A DNA stretch of 64,000 nt from Acidimicrobiales bacterium (GCA_020629635.1 JAHDCX010000002.1:25591-89590), one strand, 5' to 3'; counted from the stretch's first letter, positions 30,652 through 39,340 are shown. The notes: generated by a model not told the origin, from the letters alone. Made by a program: numbers and translations.

Positions 30652-31455
30652 TTAGCGCCTCTGCGGGTGACGAATGGAGATCGCAGAGGCAGCGAATGCC
30701 GCGAGCGCGACCGCAATGGCGGCGTATGCGGCAGTACTCATGCTTTCGTCGGAATCGATGCCAGCCATCAGTGCACCGGGCAGGAGCTCCAGCGCGAACC
30801 ATGCACCTGCACCGATGAGTGGTCGAGGATCGAGACGAACGAGGGTCAGGCCGAGAGCGAGCAACCCGCATTGCAGCACGAATCCACCCAGAAACCCATC
30901 GCCGAGATCGGCGAGCGGCCCGAAGGACAGCGCCAGGATGACGATGGCGACCATGGTTGGTGATCCGGCGGGGCGTCCGTCACCCCATCGGCGGCTCAAC
31001 CCGCCAAGGCCGGCGAGCAACGAAACCGGGGCGGCCAAGAACGGAATGGCGAAGAAGCCAACCGAGAGCGCTGCCCCGAGCTGGAGTAGAGCGACCCCAG
31101 CGATCGACCTCGAAGACGTTGATCGAATCAGGAGAATGACTGAAAGGGCTGAAAGGAGAGGCTCGAGGGCGTACCGTCCGCCCCAATCCCAAGACCCGTA
31201 GCTCCACACATAGGTCGTGTGGGTCGTGAGCATCAGTAGCAGTCCGAGCATGGCGCCCTGAATCCACGTGCGCTGAACCGTGTCACCTGATTCGATTCGG
31301 GTGCGGGTGCGAAGTCCAACGTTGAACAGGCTGAGAGATTGCCTTGCGGACCAGCGATTGTCGGTGAGGGCGTTGGCCGTGTCGACGAGTTCGGCGCCGT
31401 GCTCTTGGCGATACTCGGCAGGGAACGCACGCATGACGAGGCGGTAGCTGCTCAT
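30652..31455 (-). CDS. PadR-associated polytopic membrane protein, paralog 1
   Basis: N-terminus MSSYRLVMRAFPAEYRQEHGAELVD (permease-prefix type) followed by about 6 TM. ATGA overlap with paralog 2. Confidence 0.7.
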   Translation of the reverse strand: MSSYRLVMRAFPAEYRQEHGAELVDTANALTDNRWSARQSLSLFNVGLRTRTRIESGDTVQRTWIQGAMLGLLLMLTTHTTYVWSYGSWDWGGRYALEPLLSALSVILLIRSTSSRSIAGVALLQLGAALSVGFFAIPFLAAPVSLLAGLGGLSRRWGDGRPAGSPTMVAIVILALSFGPLADLGDGFLGGFVLQCGLLALGLTLVRLDPRPLIGAGAWFALELLPGALMAGIDSDESMSTAAYAAIAVALAAFAASAISIRHPQRR

Positions 31456-31456: not shown

Positions 31457-32309
31457 TTGTCGAAAGGTCGCGGCCGAGCCGGGTGATGCGTTTCAGCGAG
31501 CGATGTGCGAAGACGAGTAGGAGAATGCCGAAGGTTACGAGTCCGGTCGAGATCGCAATTCCAGCAAAGTTGGTGTTCGTGATGGCGGTCGCCAGCGATG
31601 GCCCTCCGACCGATACGACGAACCAGTAACCACTAGCGACGAGCGGGCGAGGATCCCACGGGCTGACCAGAATGCCGATCGAGGTGGTCGCCACCAGACC
31701 GATGCCCGTGATGGCGAACGGAATCTGGATCACTACAGCAAGCATGAGAATGAGACTGACACCAACCACGAGTACGCCCGTCGAAACGACCCGTGCACCG
31801 GTCCCATGTCGATTGAGGAAGAAGAGCAAGATCGAATAGCCCGCAAGGATGAAGAGCAGCGACGCCAGGGTCGTCGAACCAACGCTTGCCACGTGAGGCC
31901 CGAGTTCGAGGGCGGCTATGAGCGCGACGGCATGCCGGCTTGTGGTCCTGGAGAGAACAACGCAGGCGACTACCGCAGCAGCGAGATGCCAAGACAAAAT
32001 GCTGGACGTCTCGATCATCTCGATATCGCCCCGAGCAGCGTGCCCCGACAGCCACATCGTCAGGTCAACTGCCCGTGTGCTGGACATCAGCAAGATGGCG
32101 ATGAGTAGGCCCTCGCTCCACACGCGACGAGGGTCCGAACCGATCGCTGATCGACTTCTCGTCTGGATGCCGAGTGTCAACAGGCCGAGTGATTGACGAA
32201 CCGACCAGCGATTGTCGGTGAGAGAGTTCGCCGTGTCGACGATTTCGGCGCCGTGCTCTTGGCGATACTCGGCAGGGAACGCACGCATGACGAGGCGGTA
32301 GCTGCTCAT
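31452..32309 (-). CDS. PadR-associated polytopic membrane protein, paralog 2
   Basis: Same N-terminal 50 aa as paralog 1 with a divergent TM body. ATGA overlap with the PadR stop. Confidence 0.7.
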   Translation of the reverse strand: MSSYRLVMRAFPAEYRQEHGAEIVDTANSLTDNRWSVRQSLGLLTLGIQTRSRSAIGSDPRRVWSEGLLIAILLMSSTRAVDLTMWLSGHAARGDIEMIETSSILSWHLAAAVVACVVLSRTTSRHAVALIAALELGPHVASVGSTTLASLLFILAGYSILLFFLNRHGTGARVVSTGVLVVGVSLILMLAVVIQIPFAITGIGLVATTSIGILVSPWDPRPLVASGYWFVVSVGGPSLATAITNTNFAGIAISTGLVTFGILLLVFAHRSLKRITRLGRDLSTT

Positions 32310-32310
32310 G
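32203..32310. repeat. 5'-end repeat of paralog 2
   Basis: See 31349-31456. Spacing of 854 bp equals one gene length, as expected for a tandem duplication. Confidence 0.85.
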
Positions 32311-32641
32311 ACGTTGCTCCTGTGCTTCCAAGATTGGGCAGTCGACCGATGACTCGTTCGCTCGCCTCGACTACAGATCGCATGCGCTGGGCTTCGAGGC
32401 CGGTCTCGTGTCGCCCATATTCGGTGATGCGGTAGTACCGGCGGCGCCGGCCATTCACGGTCTCCTCCCGGTCGACCTCGAGCAGTCCGTCGTCGACAAG
32501 GCGGTCCAATGCGCCATAGAGCGTTCCGGCTGTGAGTCGTACGCGTCCCGAGGAGAGCAGATCGGCCTTCTTGATGATTCCGTATCCGTGCAGCGGCTCC
32601 GCGTGCAGGGCGAGCAGGATGAAGTACGTCGGCTCTCGCAT
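32306..32641 (-). CDS. PadR-family transcriptional regulator
   Basis: MREPTYFILLALHAEPLHGYGIIK...TAGTLYGALDRLVDDGLL...RRRYYRITEYG. An alternative GTG start lies at 32665. Confidence 0.85.
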   Translation of the reverse strand: MREPTYFILLALHAEPLHGYGIIKKADLLSSGRVRLTAGTLYGALDRLVDDGLLEVDREETVNGRRRRYYRITEYGRHETGLEAQRMRSVVEASERVIGRLPNLGSTGATS

Positions 32642-32645
32642 ACCA

Positions 32646-32674
32646 CCGATGATACATCGGGTCACGATATATCG
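32646..32674. promoter_or_regulatory. AT-richer palindromes upstream of the PadR gene (candidate operator/promoter)
   Basis: ccgatg-ata-catcgg (32646-32660) and cgatatatcg (32665-32674), in the PadR/photolyase-like divergent region. Confidence 0.3.
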
Positions 32675-32700
32675 GTAGTCGCGCCGTCCATGTCGAACGC

Positions 32701-32722
32701 GTGACCGGAGGCTGTGGCTTAG
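32701..32722. repeat. Partial third copy of the extension of element A
   Basis: gtgaccggaggctgtggcttag versus gtgaccgggggcagtggcttag at 30634-30655 (20 of 22 identical). Confidence 0.7.
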
Positions 32723-34023
32723 GTCTCAACCAGCCGCTGTCAGGTCCGCTGTGGAACGGGACGTCGTCGTACGGTTCTGATGTGTCAGCTCTGCCGCTTC
32801 CCGAACCGGGCGTCGACGCCGCCGTCGAATGGGTCGGACGCCACCTCGACGACCTCTGTTCGGACGCGCCGCGGGCCTCGACGAGATTCCGGGGCGGTCA
32901 GACGGCCGCTGATGCGGCGCTCGCGTCATTCGATGTTGGGGGCTACGCCGGTCGCCGAAACGAGGTGCTTCCCGTTGCGCGCCGCGGAGCGTCCGGCTTG
33001 TCACCGTGGATCCGTCACGGTCTCCTCACACTGCCCGACGTGTGGGCGCATGTGGCGGGAGGACCGTCTCGAGATGTCGCCAAGTTTCGCGACGAGCTGC
33101 TCTGGCAGGAGTACGCCCGTCACGTGTACGCCCGAGTCGGGCGCCGATCGTCCGTCGGGCTCCGCCACGAACACGCCGGAAACCCACGACCGGCGACCCG
33201 CGCCCACGACCTTTCCGCAGAACCCGCGATGCGCTGCGTCGCCGCCGTTGCAGACGAGCTGGAGGCCGACGGATGGCTCGTCAATCAGACGCGAATGTGG
33301 ATGGCCAGCCACTGGACGGTCCGCAACGGCTGGCGCTGGCAGGACGGCGAGGACCTGTTCTTCCGGCATCTGCTCGACGGCAGCCGCGCGGCCAACCGAC
33401 TGGGCTGGCAGTGGACGACGGGAGTCGGATCGTCCAAGCCCTACGGGTTCAGTCGATGGCAGGTCGAGAAGCGGGCCCCGCAACTCTGCCGCGACTGCGA
33501 GCTGGCCGCCCGTTGCCCGATCGAAGGGTGGCCCGACGACCCAACCACGACTCCGGCCGAGGTTCCCGTCGACCTGGGCCGGGCGACGGCAGCACCCGCA
33601 ATGGCGGGTCCGGCGGCGGTCGAACGAACGGGTGGCGACCCTGACGCCGTCTGGCTGACCGCCGAATCGCTCGGCGATGCCGACCCAGCCCTCGCCGCCC
33701 ATCCCGAGGCGGACGTGCACTTCGTGTTCGACGAACCGCTGCTCGCCAGGTTGCAGCTTTCGTCAAAGCGGTTGATCTTCCTCACCGAAACCCTGGCCGA
33801 ACTCGGGACCCACCGAACGGTGAATCTGCACCGCGGTCGGCCGGCCGATCTGCTGTCGGGGGTCGCTCTGGCGGTGACCCACGCTCCCGTACCCGGGTTC
33901 GCCACACGTGCACGCCGTCTGAACGTCGTCGAGGCCCATCCGTGGCCATGGCTCGCTCGACCGTCGGGTGGGAGCGTCAGGAGCTTCTCGGCGTGGCGAA
34001 AGGGCCTACGATTGGCGCCATGA
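32701..34023 (+). CDS. Cryptochrome/photolyase-family protein with apparent permuted domain order
   Basis: FAD-binding-domain motifs lie near the N-terminus (GLSPWIRHGLL, FRDELLWQEYARH, NQTRMWMASHW, LLDGSRAANRLGWQWTTG). Cys set MRC...CRDC...RCP. The C-terminal 130 aa resemble the alpha/beta photolyase domain. Start uncertain. Confidence 0.75.
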   Translation: MTGGCGLGLNQPLSGPLWNGTSSYGSDVSALPLPEPGVDAAVEWVGRHLDDLCSDAPRASTRFRGGQTAADAALASFDVGGYAGRRNEVLPVARRGASGLSPWIRHGLLTLPDVWAHVAGGPSRDVAKFRDELLWQEYARHVYARVGRRSSVGLRHEHAGNPRPATRAHDLSAEPAMRCVAAVADELEADGWLVNQTRMWMASHWTVRNGWRWQDGEDLFFRHLLDGSRAANRLGWQWTTGVGSSKPYGFSRWQVEKRAPQLCRDCELAARCPIEGWPDDPTTTPAEVPVDLGRATAAPAMAGPAAVERTGGDPDAVWLTAESLGDADPALAAHPEADVHFVFDEPLLARLQLSSKRLIFLTETLAELGTHRTVNLHRGRPADLLSGVALAVTHAPVPGFATRARRLNVVEAHPWPWLARPSGGSVRSFSAWRKGLRLAP

Positions 34024-34511
34024 GCGCCGCCATCGATCCGAAGTTCTTCCGCCAGGTCATGGGGCAGGTCCCCACCTGCGTCACCGTCGTGACCGCGATG
34101 GTCGACGAGCAGCCCCAAGCGATGGTCATTGGGAGTTTCGTGTCCGTGTCGCTCGACCCGCCGCTCGCCGGGTTTTTCTGCACGACGACGTCGTCGACAT
34201 GGCAGGAGCTGCGCAAGGCCGACGTGCTCGGTGTCAACGTGCTCGGTGCGGATCAGATCGACGTCTCGAACGCCTGCATGCGTGCCCCTGACGAACGGCT
34301 CGACGGACTCGATTGGGAGATGGACGGTGGAGCCCCGCGGCTCGCTGGCACGACGGCATGGATTCGATTGACGCCCAATCAGGTGATCGACGCCGGAGAC
34401 CACGAGTTCGCCCTGTGCAACGTGGTGGAGATGTCGGTGCCCGACGAGCCGAACGAGCCCGTCATCTTCTACGGCGGCGCCTACCGGTCGCTCGCCGCGA
34501 TCGAAGACTGA
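34020..34511 (+). CDS. Flavin reductase (FMN-binding split-barrel)
   Basis: FRQVMGQVPTCVTVVTA...MVIGSFVSVSLDPPL...VIFYGGAY. ATGA overlap with the upstream gene. Confidence 0.85.
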   Translation: MSAAIDPKFFRQVMGQVPTCVTVVTAMVDEQPQAMVIGSFVSVSLDPPLAGFFCTTTSSTWQELRKADVLGVNVLGADQIDVSNACMRAPDERLDGLDWEMDGGAPRLAGTTAWIRLTPNQVIDAGDHEFALCNVVEMSVPDEPNEPVIFYGGAYRSLAAIED

Positions 34512-34524
34512 ACGGGCCGGGTCG

Positions 34525-35553
34525 ATGCGGGTCTTCGCCAGCGACGCGCACCGTGCCCACTTCCCGGCGGGCGAGATCTACAACGGCGAACTGGTCCGAC
34601 CATTCGAATGCCCGGAGCGTTGGGATCACATCGATGACGCCCTGACGGCGGCCGGAATGACCGAGCGCCACGACGCTGCCGCGGTCGGCGTTGATCGGCT
34701 GGCCGCCGTGCACGACCCGGCCTTCGTCGACTTCCTCACCCACGCATGGGACGAGTGGACTGCACAGGGCCACGACGGCGACATGATCCCGACGTGCTTC
34801 CCGGCTCGCCGCATGAATCAGCGCATCCCCGCCGACATCGACGGGCGCCTCGGCTACTTTGCCTTTGCCGCAGAGACGTCGATCATGTCGGGCACCTGGT
34901 CTGCCGCACTCGCGGCCGCGTCGCTTGCGAACGAGGCGGCGGTCCGCACGATCGCCGACGGCGAACCGTCGTTTGCCTTGTGCCGGCCGCCGGGACATCA
35001 CGCCTCGATCGACTTCTTCGGCGGCTATTGCTACCTGAACAATGCGGCGATCGCGGCGGAGACCATGCTGGCCGAAGGTGCCGAACGGGTCGCGGTGATC
35101 GACGTCGACTTCCATCACGGCAACGGGACCCAGGACATCTTCTGGACGCGTCAGGACGTGTTCTTCGGGTCGGTCCACGGGGATCCGGCGCACGAGTTCC
35201 CGCACTTCAGCGGGTACGCCGACGAAGCCGGCGGCGGCGACGGCGAAGGGGCGACGGTCAACCGGCCTCTTGCTCCGGGCACCGACGCCTCGACGTGGTT
35301 CGCGGCGCTCGACGACCTCATCGATCACGCCGTCGGCCATGGAGTCGACGCACTCGTCGTGTCGTTGGGCGTCGACACCTACGAAAACGACCCCATCTCG
35401 AGCTTCCGTCTCGCCAGCGCCGACTTTGCCGGGATTGGGGAGCGGCTGGCCGGTCTTGACGTACCGACGGTCTATTGCATGGAAGGCGGCTACGCGGTCG
35501 CCGAGATCGGCACCAACGTCGTGAACGTGCTCCGCGGTCACGTTGGGGTCTGA
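34525..35553 (+). CDS. Histone-deacetylase-family amidohydrolase (acetylpolyamine/acetoin-utilisation type)
   Basis: CRPPGHHA, GGYCYLNNAAIAA, VIDVDFHHGNGTQDIF, MEGGY. Confidence 0.9.
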   Translation: MRVFASDAHRAHFPAGEIYNGELVRPFECPERWDHIDDALTAAGMTERHDAAAVGVDRLAAVHDPAFVDFLTHAWDEWTAQGHDGDMIPTCFPARRMNQRIPADIDGRLGYFAFAAETSIMSGTWSAALAAASLANEAAVRTIADGEPSFALCRPPGHHASIDFFGGYCYLNNAAIAAETMLAEGAERVAVIDVDFHHGNGTQDIFWTRQDVFFGSVHGDPAHEFPHFSGYADEAGGGDGEGATVNRPLAPGTDASTWFAALDDLIDHAVGHGVDALVVSLGVDTYENDPISSFRLASADFAGIGERLAGLDVPTVYCMEGGYAVAEIGTNVVNVLRGHVGV

Positions 35554-35567
35554 CCCCGAAGTGACCG
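35535..35567. repeat. 33-nt nested palindromic element, copy B
   Basis: cggtcac-gtt-ggggtc-t-gacccc-gaa-gtgaccg. Its reverse complement matches copy A at 32 of 33 nt. It covers the last five codons and stop of the deacetylase gene and ends 2 nt before the convergent stop. Confidence 0.85.
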
Positions 35568-35568
35568 G

Positions 35569-36879
35569 TCAGCGGCGGAGATGGATGGCGTTGGCGTGGG
35601 CGGGGAAGCCTTCGTGGTTTGCCAGGGCGATCGTGGAGTCGGCGACGGCGGCGAGCGCGTCGGCGGTGAGGTGACCGATCGCCGCGGCCTTGAGGAACTG
35701 CTCCACGGTGATGCCCCCGGAGCGGTTGGCGTGCCCGCCGGTCGGGAGGGCCGCCGGGCCGCCGAGGGTGAAATTGCCGGCGGAGAACGGGGTGTGCTGG
35801 CCGAGCAGAAGTTCCCCGGCATGCTCGATCCCGTCGGCGGCGGCCCAGGGGTCAGCGACCGCAAGTTGGCAGTGCTCCGACGCAAACCAGTTGGCAACCT
35901 CGATCGCGGCGTCGAGATCGTCGGTCAGGACCACGCCACCGTTCGTGCCGAGCGCAGCGGTCGCCGCGTCTCGCCGCTCGATGGGGAGTTCTGCCGCCTG
36001 ACGGTCGAGCTCGGCATCGACAGCCTCGACGACGTCGGCCGCTGCGGTCACGAGCACGACCGTCGAGTCCGTCCCGTGTTCGGCTTCGTTGAGAAGGTCC
36101 GCGGCGAGCAGCGTGATGTTGGCGGAGTCATCGGCGACCACCAGTGATTCGGTCGGGCCCAGGACGACCGAGTCCACTCCATGGGTTCGGACCTCGAGCT
36201 GGGCGAGCGAGACCGCCGGGCTTCCGGGGCCGACGACCATGCCGTGCGCCGGGATCGACTCGGTACCGAATGCGGCGGCCGCCACCCCCGCCGGTCCGTT
36301 CACCCGAAAGACGTCGGTGAGCCCGAGCTCGTGGGCAACCGTCAGCACCGCCCCGTCGATCTCGCCCGCCCCTCCGGGGGCAGGAGGCACGATCACGCTC
36401 AGCTGGGGTACTCCCGCCACGGACGCCGGCGTCGCGATCTGGGCGAGCACCGACGGGTAACTGGCCTTGCCGCTCGGGCAGAACAGCGCAGCCGACGCGA
36501 CCGGCCCGACCTTCTCGCCGATGGTGTGGCCGGGTGCGATCTCGGCGGTCCACGATGCGCGGCGTTCGAGCAGCGCCTCGTTGAAGGCGCGGATGTTGGC
36601 GATCATGTGGCGAATGGCGGCGTGTACGTCCGAGTCGATCGTGGCCAACGCCTCGGCGAACTCTTCGTCGGAGACTCGGAGACCGCCGGGCTCGACCGTC
36701 ACCCCGTCGAATCGCGCCAGCGCCTCGCACACGGCAACGTCGCCTCGCGCTCGGACGTCGTCCACGAGTGAACGAATGTCGTCACGCAGTGAGGCTGTCA
36801 CCTCAGTCGCCGCCCCGCGACCGTGCAACCAGGCCCGGTCAGCGTCGGTCATTTCGTTCCACACCATCCTGCGAAGCAT
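35569..36879 (-). CDS. Histidinol-dehydrogenase-family oxidoreductase
   Basis: ALFCPSGKASYPS, VNGPAGVAAAAFGT, LLNEAEHGTDS, GHANRSGGITVEQF. Start at 36879, 36867 or 36852. Confidence 0.85.
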   Translation of the reverse strand: MLRRMVWNEMTDADRAWLHGRGAATEVTASLRDDIRSLVDDVRARGDVAVCEALARFDGVTVEPGGLRVSDEEFAEALATIDSDVHAAIRHMIANIRAFNEALLERRASWTAEIAPGHTIGEKVGPVASAALFCPSGKASYPSVLAQIATPASVAGVPQLSVIVPPAPGGAGEIDGAVLTVAHELGLTDVFRVNGPAGVAAAAFGTESIPAHGMVVGPGSPAVSLAQLEVRTHGVDSVVLGPTESLVVADDSANITLLAADLLNEAEHGTDSTVVLVTAAADVVEAVDAELDRQAAELPIERRDAATAALGTNGGVVLTDDLDAAIEVANWFASEHCQLAVADPWAAADGIEHAGELLLGQHTPFSAGNFTLGGPAALPTGGHANRSGGITVEQFLKAAAIGHLTADALAAVADSTIALANHEGFPAHANAIHLRR

Positions 36880-36883
36880 GGGT

Positions 36884-37675
36884 TCAGTATGGGAGGTTCG
36901 CCCCCGCGTTCGGTCGCCCGCGACCCGCAAACGAATCCATCCAGTCGTCGATGTCGCGCCACACCGGCGTCCGCGGGTCGATGATCGTGAAGTGATCGGC
37001 GTCGGCCGGATTGAGGTGAACGGCCTCGTCGTGCGCGGCGATGGCGGCAGCCACGTATTTGGCCGACATGTCCACGGGGACGTCGTCGTCGCCGCTGGCG
37101 TGGACGATGAGTTGCGGAACGGCGAGTGGGAGGAGTCGGATGGGTGAGGCGTCTGCGTAGATGTCCGGGATTTCGTCGGCCCGTCCGCCGAGGAGTACCG
37201 CCGCCGCCGACGACGACAAGGCCTCACGGTCTGCGGATTCGAGGTCGGAGACTGGCGCGAGCGCAACGACACCGTCGATCGGGCTGTGCTGTTGGCCCGC
37301 CGCCCACAACGCGAGGTGTCCGCCTGCCGAATGACCCACGGCGATCACCGTCCGGTTCCGGTCAGTCGAGAGTCCAGCCGCCCAGGCCACCGCCGCGGAG
37401 ACGTCGGCGCGCATCTGCGGCCAGACCGACGCCGTGTCGTCCGACTCGATTCGCCGGTACTCCACGTTCACCACCTCCCACCCTCGGTTGACGAGGTGAT
37501 GGCAGATGGCGGTGTTGATGTCGAGTCCATATCGTGCTCGCCAATACCCGCCGTGAAACGAGATCGCCGTGCCGATCGGTTGGGCGACGTCGGGTCGGTA
37601 GTGATCGACAAACTGCTCGGGGTCCGGGCCGTAGGGGGTGCGTTCCGGGAGGATGGGAGCGTCGCGCCGGCTCAT
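36884..37675 (-). CDS. Alpha/beta hydrolase, kynurenine/aryl-formamidase-like
   Basis: FHGGYW oxyanion motif and nucleophile elbow VGHSAGGHLALWAA. Confidence 0.75.
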   Translation of the reverse strand: MSRRDAPILPERTPYGPDPEQFVDHYRPDVAQPIGTAISFHGGYWRARYGLDINTAICHHLVNRGWEVVNVEYRRIESDDTASVWPQMRADVSAAVAWAAGLSTDRNRTVIAVGHSAGGHLALWAAGQQHSPIDGVVALAPVSDLESADREALSSSAAAVLLGGRADEIPDIYADASPIRLLPLAVPQLIVHASGDDDVPVDMSAKYVAAAIAAHDEAVHLNPADADHFTIIDPRTPVWRDIDDWMDSFAGRGRPNAGANLPY

Positions 37676-37679
37676 TCGC

Positions 37680-38462
37680 TCACCGTCCGTAGAACGTGGT
37701 GCGGGCGGAGGCGGACAGGGCGATGTCGGGTTCGACGTTGAACGCGAAGACCACGAGGATGCGTGTCCGTGGCCCCGCCGATGGTGTCACCCGATGCAAC
37801 GAGTCGCGCCCCCGGAAGATGACGAGATCTCCCGGGGCCATGTCGAGGGTCTGGACGTGATGACCGTCATCGAGCACCGACGCGAGCCGTTCGTGCTCCG
37901 CCGGGTCGCCGTGACCACGTCCGGCCGAACGGATGGACGGTGCGTACTCGAACGCGCCCCCTCGTTCTGGAGCCTGGATGAGCGCGGTCACGGCGAAGGA
38001 TGAGTTGTCGAAGTGCCACCCCAGCTCTTCACCGTCGCGATGGAAGTGCACGTTGATCGACGACACGTCGTCGGCGTACGGGTGCAAACCCTCAACGCCG
38101 AGCACACCGATCAGGTGGTCTCGAAGGGTCCGATCGGTGTAGACGGCGCGGAGCGCCGAGTCCGTCGTGATCTGGTCATCGGCGAGCAGGCCCTTCGTGC
38201 TCACGATCTGGCGATTGACGAGGTGATCGGGCCCGAGGCTGGGATCGCCGTCGGTCAGGTAGACGTTGTGGGTCGACGACGCATAGAAGGCGTCGCTCTC
38301 GCGACCGTCGACTTCGGCCAAGACGGCGTCGAGACATGACGCCGTCAGCAGTCGGTCGAGTACGAGAACCCCGTGCTCGGCGAGCGTTCGGCGATCACGA
38401 GCGATGGCGTCGGGGTCGGCCAATCGGTGCCGTGCGGCGTCAATGAGCGCCGTCACGGCCAC
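37680..38462 (-). CDS. Fe(II)/2-oxoglutarate-dependent oxygenase
   Basis: WHFDNS (HxD) ... SLHRVTP, with jelly-roll spacing. Confidence 0.7.
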   Translation of the reverse strand: MAVTALIDAARHRLADPDAIARDRRTLAEHGVLVLDRLLTASCLDAVLAEVDGRESDAFYASSTHNVYLTDGDPSLGPDHLVNRQIVSTKGLLADDQITTDSALRAVYTDRTLRDHLIGVLGVEGLHPYADDVSSINVHFHRDGEELGWHFDNSSFAVTALIQAPERGGAFEYAPSIRSAGRGHGDPAEHERLASVLDDGHHVQTLDMAPGDLVIFRGRDSLHRVTPSAGPRTRILVVFAFNVEPDIALSASARTTFYGR

Positions 38463-39340
38463 AGCACCGGGAACCAGTCGGTTCGCATCGGATCACCCGG
38501 CTGGAGGTCGAGGCCCTCGAGTGGGGGAGAGGTCGCACCCGGCCGCTCGACGTACACCGCGTCGTCACCGAGCCATCGAGTGCTGAAGGCGCGGCGCCGT
38601 CCGGTCACGGGCGCGGCCGTCGTCCCGTGCAGCGTGCGAAAGTCGAAGATGAGCGCGTCGCCAGCTTGGAGAGCTGCGGAGAAGACGCGCGGGTCGTCGT
38701 CGTCGACTGCGTCGGTTGAGCGCATCGTGGCGTCCTCGGACGCGTACTCAGAACCATCGACGAATGTCCGCGGTCGGTAGAGCACGCCGTCGCGGTGCGA
38801 ACCCGTGAGGAACCTGACGGCGGTTTCGGCGGGCGTGTCGTCGAGCGCGACGTACACGCTTGCCGTCTGCGATCCGTCGACGCAGTAGTACGGAAGGTCG
38901 TGATGCCACGGCGTGGCCTTGGCGACGCCACCCTCCTTGGCGAACACGTGCTCGTGGAACAACTGGGCTCGTTCGGACCGCATGCACTGCGCCGCCAGAT
39001 GGGCGGCGGGCGAGGTGAGCACGTGCGCCAAGAACTCCGGTATGCGCTGCCAGTTGCAGTAGGCGTCGAAGAAGCGGCCGGACTCGCCCCCTCGTGTGCT
39101 CTCGCACGGGAAGGCGAAACGATGCGGCGCTTCGAGCAGTCGATCGAGTCCCCGTCGAAGACGCTCGACGTCGTCCGCAAACACGCCGGGCACCTTCACG
39201 ACTCCGTCGGTTGCGAACTGTTGGACCGTCTCGGCACTGAGCTGGAGAGATGACCGCTGCGTGGATTCGACGACCGGCCCCACGTCGTCGAACACGCGCC
39301 AATCGACGGTCGACCGATTGCCGGTTTCGACCCCGCTCAC
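38453..39340 (-). CDS. Phytanoyl-CoA dioxygenase (PhyH) family protein
   Basis: TPWHHDLPYY (HxD), FLTGSHRDG, FDFRTLHGT. Confidence 0.8.
   Translation of the reverse strand: MSGVETGNRSTVDWRVFDDVGPVVESTQRSSLQLSAETVQQFATDGVVKVPGVFADDVERLRRGLDRLLEAPHRFAFPCESTRGGESGRFFDAYCNWQRIPEFLAHVLTSPAAHLAAQCMRSERAQLFHEHVFAKEGGVAKATPWHHDLPYYCVDGSQTASVYVALDDTPAETAVRFLTGSHRDGVLYRPRTFVDGSEYASEDATMRSTDAVDDDDPRVFSAALQAGDALIFDFRTLHGTTAAPVTGRRRAFSTRWLGDDAVYVERPGATSPPLEGLDLQPGDPMRTDWFPVLWP

Follow-up and report, generated by a model that had tools for sequence, protein, structure and literature searches.

The gene at 32701..34023 (+ strand) of a 64,000-nucleotide stretch of DNA from an Acidimicrobiales bacterium (GCA_020629635.1 JAHDCX010000002.1:25591-89590; the whole stretch is referred to below as the window) very likely encodes a short photolyase-like (SPL) protein, a member of the class also known as NewPHL, and of the cysteine-bearing actinobacterial type exemplified by RfSPL of Rhodococcus fascians. 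As such, it would bind flavin adenine dinucleotide (FAD) and an iron-sulfur (Fe-S) cluster and repair cyclobutane pyrimidine dimers (CPDs), and the two genes immediately downstream, for a flavin reductase and an HDAC-family amidohydrolase, would belong to a separate cluster. An earlier note on the same DNA had proposed a photolyase/cryptochrome-like protein of swapped domain order, thought to be undescribed, that might act together with these two genes as a light- or redox-responsive module.

The novelty of the architecture did not survive comparison with the literature. Bacterial photolyases with an "inverted topology" were reported as NewPHL by Emmerich et al. (2020; PMC7736829), with FAD as their only cofactor, a two-tryptophan electron path and CPD repair in single-stranded DNA only; the SPL proteins of Xu et al. 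(2021) are stated to equal the NewPHL class (PMC8476157). Four conserved cysteines arranged as in the FeS-BCPs are present in roughly a third of SPLs, those of subgroups C and Ac (PMC8476157). RfSPL, a 406-aa protein of subgroup Ac with these residues at Cys155/239/242/248, contains FAD together with iron and acid-labile sulfide (about 3.5:4:1 with FAD) and gives an Fe-S electron paramagnetic resonance signal; it repairs CPDs and not (6-4) photoproducts, and its overexpression raised photoreactivation in vivo (PMC8476157). The type of protein encoded in the window, with its architecture, its cysteine set and its likely function, was therefore already published in 2020-2021, the four-cysteine actinobacterial subgroup included (PMC7736829, PMC8476157), and with these class features on record the protein by itself is of little importance. 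Its wider relevance lies in the origin of its C-terminal domain and in the breadth of its family.

A catalytic domain at the N-terminus and a four-cysteine site

The longest open reading frame (ORF) of the gene begins at a GTG at 32701 and encodes 440 aa. A second GTG, at 32782, which gives a protein of 413 aa, is probably the true start, as judged from comparison with related proteins: the homologues (>4,400 database matches, mostly of about 400-415 aa) begin at residue 28 of the 440-aa ORF, and only 35 bp part GTG 32701 from the start of a divergent gene for a PadR-family regulator. The public gene call for the window protein (P0001, 440 aa) takes GTG 32701 as the start; looking up the exact protein among sequence clusters yielded neither a name nor an accession.

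The all-helical FAD-binding catalytic domain, which includes the CPD- and FAD-binding residues, occupies the N-terminal part of this protein (32782..33606, +; aa 1 to about 275 in the 413-aa numbering). Domain mapping with hidden Markov models, proposed in the earlier note, placed FAD_binding_7 in the N-terminal half as the sole Pfam match of the 440-aa ORF (aa 130-246, E 2.6e-11). The NCBIfam photolyase and DASH profiles aligned ORF aa 54-260 with profile positions of about 196-415 of 431-472; only the C-terminal half of TIGR03556 and of PRK10674 was matched by the window protein, with scores far under the cut-offs (53 vs 884.6 bits and 40 vs 506, respectively). Ahead of the catalytic domain, the window protein had no match to PF00875 or PF04244 (for PF04244, none at E<=1). 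Among solved structures, the best sequence matches were class I CPD photolyases, over aa 65-245 only (1tez, E 3.6e-13). The profile mapping and the solved-structure matches together establish that the catalytic domain stands at the N-terminus, as the earlier note had claimed.

An annotation artefact, in which a frameshift or a mis-set start conceals a normal alpha/beta domain at the N-terminus and the gene encodes an ordinary photolyase, would be compatible with the uncertainty of the start codon (GTG 32701 vs GTG 32782), but appears extremely improbable on all other counts. The PadR gene (32306..32665, -; Pfam PadR E 2.3e-19) lies on the opposite strand 35 bp upstream of the photolyase ORF, which leaves no space for a missed N-terminal domain; tblastn with E. 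coli photolyase as the query found no N-terminal-domain-like segment, and no second photolyase-like segment, anywhere in the 64-kb window; and thousands of homologues share the length of ~400 aa and the same architecture. A missed N-terminal part of the photolyase, which the earlier note had named as one of two findings that would refute its interpretation, is excluded by the PadR position, the tblastn result and the homologue lengths.

The active site is that of a CPD photolyase. Alignment with E. coli Phr revealed that five CPD-binding residues (the equivalents of Ec E274, W277, N341, M345 and W384) and five FAD-binding residues (those of Ec R344, D372, A377, N378 and G381) are identical in the window protein, and all ten are invariant or nearly so among 120 homologues. 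Two of the three members of the Trp triad are present, the equivalents of W359 and W382 being the invariant W186 and W209 (413-aa numbering), and the distal W306 equivalent is a Glu in the window protein. The retention of CPD- and FAD-binding residues with a two-Trp chain is the signature of the SPL/NewPHL class. The AlphaFold2 model of the full-length protein, built with the 120 homologues, reached a predicted local distance difference test score (pLDDT) of 94.4 and a predicted template modelling score (pTM) of 0.93. In a Foldseek search with this model, the catalytic domain alone aligned, to photolyases and cryptochromes (1iqr, E 2.5e-8; PhrB 4dja, E 5.5e-5), because the search is sequential and blind to a permuted domain. 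The structural comparison with PhrB, also suggested in the earlier note, was thus positive for the catalytic domain.

The protein also carries a set of four cysteines (MRC, CRDC and RCP) that are predicted ligands of a [4Fe-4S] or [3Fe-4S] cluster (33235..33516, +; codons 33235-33237, 33487-33489, 33496-33498 and 33514-33516). They correspond to C179, C263, C266 and C272 of the 440-aa ORF, or C152, C236, C239 and C245 of the 413-aa form. Their resemblance to FeS-BCP ligands had rightly been remarked upon in the earlier note. The four residues are invariant in 120/120 homologues and at 80/80 species-level genome loci. Their spacing of 84/3/6 is identical to that in RfSPL (C155/C239/C242/C248), and with the same constant offset of 3, the remaining RfSPL residues named in PMC8476157 (Q172, R174, D202, A207, G211, R228, Q230 and K233) match the window protein. 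The site has the geometry of the Fe-S ligands of FeS-BCPs and RfSPL, and by analogy with these homologues it is predicted to bind a cluster.

Fold and origin of the C-terminal domain

The protein ends in a conserved block of about 130 aa, within which the C-terminal sequence quoted in the earlier note is the part conserved best. This block is the Z-domain of the class (33634..34020, +; aa about 285-413), with a predicted five-stranded parallel beta/alpha fold like that of the photolyase antenna domain. In the AlphaFold2 model, aa 289-407 alternate five beta-strands with helices, and the domain appears compact and packed against the catalytic domain, a packing suggested by the pTM of 0.93. When the Z-domain was modelled alone (pLDDT 87), its top six Foldseek matches in the PDB were all to MmCPDII from Methanosarcina mazei, a class II CPD photolyase (E 2.6e-3 to 3.8e-2, template modelling score 0.53-0.58, about 135 columns), matches of borderline significance that were followed by generic Rossmann methyltransferases. 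At the level of fold, these results bear out the earlier claim of a photolyase-like alpha/beta domain at the C-terminus. Among close homologues, W291, V370-P371-G372, W390 and W405 of this domain are invariant and F373 is nearly so. Emmerich et al. describe a conserved tryptophan and a 'GFF' motif in the Z-domain (PMC7736829); the sequence that may correspond to this motif in the window protein is PGF(A).

The resemblance of the Z-domain to the canonical antenna domain is supported as to fold and probable as to homology, and we consider the Z-domain to be probably a remote homologue of the canonical N-terminal antenna domain in permuted order. PF00875 was the only Pfam family that recurred on the Z-domain of relatives (5 of 35 close homologues, best E 0.052), and in two distant relatives the match was stronger and collinear with the profile (P0215, positions 30-152 vs aa 344-450, E 0.0012; P0193, positions 29-110 vs aa 319-393, E 0.0031). 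In hhalign comparisons, in which the canonical N-terminal targets were small alignments, a profile built from diverse Z-domains gave alignments that started at strand 1, one to a class I-type N-terminal pair (P 0.0011, 75 columns) and one to FeS-BCP N-terminal domains (P 0.0003, 55 columns). The Z-domain covariation map of Emmerich et al. likewise resembled the antenna domain, and a domain swap was named by them as an alternative origin (PMC7736829).

Several results pull in the other direction. The C-terminal domain of the window protein has no Pfam match even at E<=10, and no NCBIfam match, so that in this part of the protein the proposed domain mapping came back empty; a Z-domain profile of close relatives gave no alignment in hhalign with the single N-terminal domain of E. 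coli Phr; and the evidence for homology at the sequence level is sub-threshold. The Foldseek E values are only 0.003-0.04, with the generic Rossmann methyltransferases close behind. These observations would be in keeping with an unrelated Rossmann-like domain that converged on flavin capping, in which case the architecture would be no permutation. Both papers, too, prefer an ancestral single-domain photolyase as the origin of the class (PMC7736829, PMC8476157). Such convergence, which concerns the origin of the domain and not its function, is a tangible possibility, although we lean away from it: the six best structural matches are photolyases, PF00875 is the sole recurrent Pfam family on the C-terminal region and is collinear with it, the diverse profile aligns with both types of canonical N-terminal domain, and the published covariation map is antenna-like too. 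The swapped domain order put forward in the earlier note is therefore supported by the model, the Foldseek matches and the weak collinear profiles, but it is the known order of NewPHL/SPL proteins and not a new one.

The predicted fold of the Z-domain, a domain that could not be modelled earlier, is nearest to photolyase N-terminal domains and favors a domain swap from a two-domain ancestor. This result bears on the debate over the origin of the family, since both papers preferred the ancestral single-domain scenario. A further candidate was set aside: P0263 (405 aa) resembled an SPL with a canonical C-terminal PF00875 domain (E 1.2e-21), but was rejected as evidence because the segment begins MTPSGAPPQLVWFKRDLRVHDHAPL, a typical photolyase start, and ends in a frameshift-like manner. 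It probably reflects read-through from an SPL gene into an adjacent canonical photolyase gene and not a true architecture.

Genomic neighborhood of the photolyase gene

The flavin reductase gene (34020..34511, +; PF01613, HsaB/HpaC-like, 163 aa, Pfam E 8e-31) overlaps the photolyase gene by 4 nt, its ATG being fused with the photolyase stop in an ATGA at 34020-34023. The best NCBIfam matches of its product, below cut-off, were reductase components of two-component monooxygenases (HsaB-like). The gene for the HDAC-family amidohydrolase (34525..35553, +; PF00850 Hist_deacetyl, 342 aa, Pfam E 6.5e-63) begins 13 nt after the flavin reductase stop. The coupling and gene order given in the earlier note are thus both present. 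The note's further suggestion was that the three genes form a light- or redox-responsive module. In such a dedicated module, the flavin or the Fe-S cluster could, for example, receive reducing equivalents from the reductase, with the deacetylase as the output. Consistent with such a module are the tight spacing, the flavin-related nature of both partner proteins, and the conservation of the same order at the closest locus (L001), which is 75% identical, shows synteny throughout the region and joins its photolyase and flavin reductase genes by an 8-nt ATGACTGA overlap.

A wider comparison makes this module very unlikely. We searched 80 loci from species-representative genomes, mostly Acidimicrobiales/Acidimicrobiia with some Pseudonocardia, Klenkia, Amnibacterium and Actinomycetospora, with the neighbor proteins of the window; 69 of them, with at least 1.2 kb of downstream sequence, were informative. 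Flavin reductase and HDAC genes were found near the photolyase gene at just two of these 69 (L001 and L004), and in L004 three genes part the photolyase from the flavin reductase: one for a small membrane protein, an ORF of 147 aa and what appears to be a TetR regulator, the last assigned by analogy with a further locus, L084. Close homologues of the flavin reductase, for their part, occurred without a photolyase in six contexts (73-87% identity). The 87%-identical homologue in L084 stands in the order TetR, flavin reductase, HDAC and histidinol-dehydrogenase (HisD)-like, where the HisD-like identity rests on Pfam and on the genes called for that locus, and the nearest 4 kb hold no photolyase; homologues at 73-79% identity are followed by acyl-CoA-dehydrogenase-type (two-component monooxygenase-like) genes; and two others (78-82% identity) have unrelated neighbors. 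The conserved neighbor that the photolyase subgroup does have most commonly is a different gene, described below. As a conserved module, the three-gene arrangement is thus largely refuted, and it is the flavin reductase gene, and not the photolyase gene, that the HDAC gene accompanies.

The rare co-occurrence and the photolyase-free contexts of the flavin reductase imply that its adjacency to the photolyase is lineage-specific. This adjacency is probably the product of a deletion from an L004-like arrangement, and the closeness of the flavin reductase and deacetylase-type genes would be a local accident of gene order, their cluster having come to abut the photolyase in this lineage only; the flavin reductase is probably not a functional partner of the photolyase. 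The gene overlap (4 nt in the window, 8 nt in L001) tells against this separation, as it makes co-translation of the photolyase with the flavin reductase probable in this lineage, and the two may have a local functional link. Along these lines, it is conceivable, if only as a long shot, that a lineage deletion of the three genes still present in L004 joined an Fe-S photolyase to a flavin reductase that was then recruited to keep the FAD or the Fe-S cluster reduced in the dark. If so, the enzyme would be independent of photoactivation, and such an accessory-reductase arrangement has not been described for any photolyase.

The TetR, flavin reductase, HDAC and HisD-like genes recur as a photolyase-independent cluster at L084:3279-6891, at L004:5729-9294 and in the window at 34020-35553 (+) with 35569-39340 (-). 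In the window and in L001, this cluster is joined by opposite-strand genes for an alpha/beta-hydrolase (BD-FAE), a HalD-like 2-oxoglutarate oxygenase and a PhyH dioxygenase. It may serve in small-molecule modification or catabolism.

The commonest conserved neighbor of the photolyase subgroup was a DUF2256-DUF3253 fusion gene, present at 26 of the 80 loci, mostly 0-30 nt upstream and on the same strand, and absent from the window. A representative ORF (L017:5603-6004) encodes about 133 aa with a zinc-ribbon-like DUF2256 (E 1.9e-15) and DUF3253 (E 4.4e-28). It lies directly upstream of the SPL gene, as do its counterparts at about 22 other loci, L008, L011, L023, L027, L030-L032 and L034 among them. 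This gene is a candidate partner of the photolyase subgroup, and a better one than the flavin reductase. Genes of the FeS-BCP/(6-4) type (PF04244 DPRP, E 1e-47) lie as separate genes within a few kb of the SPL gene at 7-8 of the 80 loci (e.g. L010:4378-5904), in agreement with published observations that SPL/NewPHL genes occur alongside other photolyases; the window has none. A gene for a HATPase_c_2 (anti-sigma-kinase-like) protein follows the photolyase gene at 13 of the 80 loci. In L004, a MerR-family regulator gene with a SoxR-like C-terminal Cys motif (L004:3000-3467; CIGCGCLSIERC) overlaps the start of the SPL gene, which hints at redox-linked regulation there. Published surveys took in only 7-12 actinobacterial SPL/NewPHL sequences (PMC7736829, PMC8476157). 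With its >4,400 database matches, the family is very large among Actinomycetota and especially Acidimicrobiia, and the four cysteines are kept at every one of the 80 species-level loci.

On the other side of the photolyase gene, downstream of PadR, comes a tandem pair of paralogous genes for membrane proteins, at 30652-31455 (-) and 31452 to about 32300 (-). Both products begin MSSYRLVMRAFPAEYRQEHGAE, the one tested had no Pfam match, and the pair looks like a PadR-controlled duplication. Scanning 32200-35800 for promoters and terminators gave no useful result, the sequence being GC-rich.

Probable function and relation to known photolyases

With its N-terminal FAD domain, four-cysteine site, conserved active site and compact two-domain model, the window protein resembles the characterised members of its class, and from these homologues a mechanism can be proposed. 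The protein would bind FAD and an Fe-S cluster, and the FAD would be photoreduced to FADH- via the two-Trp chain of W209 and W186. Blue or near-UV light would then drive the electron transfer that splits CPDs, with single-stranded DNA as the probable preferred substrate, and the Z-domain would close off the flavin at its pyrimidine edge, a task that falls to the N-terminal antenna domain in canonical enzymes. The role of the enzyme would probably be minor, auxiliary or back-up beside canonical photolyases.

The alternative is a cryptochrome-like photoreceptor or redox sensor that is not a repair enzyme, with the C-terminal domain as a signalling extension. Xu et al. raised this idea in view of the C-terminal extensions of SPLs, the non-significant photoreactivation defect of the RfSPL knockout and the weak activity in vitro (PMC8476157). 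The HATPase_c_2 genes that follow the photolyase and the SoxR-like MerR gene that overlaps its start in L004 would be consistent with it. We nevertheless find this explanation improbable. The CPD-contact residues are invariant or nearly so in the 120 close homologues, whereas the NewCRY subgroup, for which a light-signalling role alone was deemed feasible, is described as lacking them (PMC7736829); CPD repair in vitro was shown by each of the three members characterised so far, and photoreactivation in vivo rose when RfSPL was overexpressed; and the C-terminal domain is predicted to be a compact, tightly packed alpha/beta domain, not a disordered tail.

Assignment to the RfSPL type, with CPD repair as the function, therefore remains the preferred explanation, but some caution is warranted. 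RfSPL had weak activity, a low cofactor occupancy and no significant knockout phenotype (PMC8476157), such that even for this reference protein the evidence for repair in vivo is not firm. Specificity for single-stranded DNA was demonstrated for only two proteins, both cysteine-free members of subgroup A. The proposed orthology to RfSPL derives from residue numbers quoted in PMC8476157, not from an alignment or tree.

Within these bounds, RfSPL is the nearest of the known systems. Both proteins are actinobacterial, of similar length (406 vs 413 aa) and provided with a C-terminal extension, and they share the cysteine spacing, the named FAD-pocket and DNA-backbone residues at the constant offset, and two of the three Trp-triad residues. 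The window protein differs in coming from an Acidimicrobiales-type genome and in having a gene that abuts one for a flavin reductase. DsNewPHL of Dinoroseobacter shibae and MmNewPHL of Methylobacterium mesophilicum share with it the N-terminal catalytic domain followed by a Z-domain (about 150 aa in their case), the conserved CPD active site and the two-member Trp chain. Unlike the window protein, these subgroup A enzymes lack the four cysteines, and an Fe-S cluster was not detected; the 'GFF' motif reported for the Z-domain (PMC7736829) may read PGF(A) in the window protein, and DsNewPHL and MmNewPHL are the only members for which the single-strand specificity and the hydrogen-deuterium exchange (HDX) order have been measured.

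The FeS-BCP/(6-4) photolyases, such as PhrB of Agrobacterium and CryB of Rhodobacter, have a similar arrangement of four cysteines at the end of the catalytic domain (C350/C438/C441/C454 in PhrB), and the catalytic domain of the window protein superposes on PhrB (4dja) in Foldseek. These enzymes have a canonical N-terminal DPRP domain (PF04244) and a 6,7-dimethyl-8-ribityllumazine antenna and repair (6-4) photoproducts, whereas the window protein has no PF04244 match, an active site with residues of class I CPD type and, among solved structures, class I enzymes as its nearest sequence relatives. The class I CPD photolyases themselves (E. coli Phr, 1dnp; Synechococcus, 1tez/1owl) gave these best matches and have identical substrate- and FAD-binding residues. 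Compared with them, the window protein has the reverse domain order, no recognisable antenna site, no distal Trp and, in addition, a four-cysteine site.

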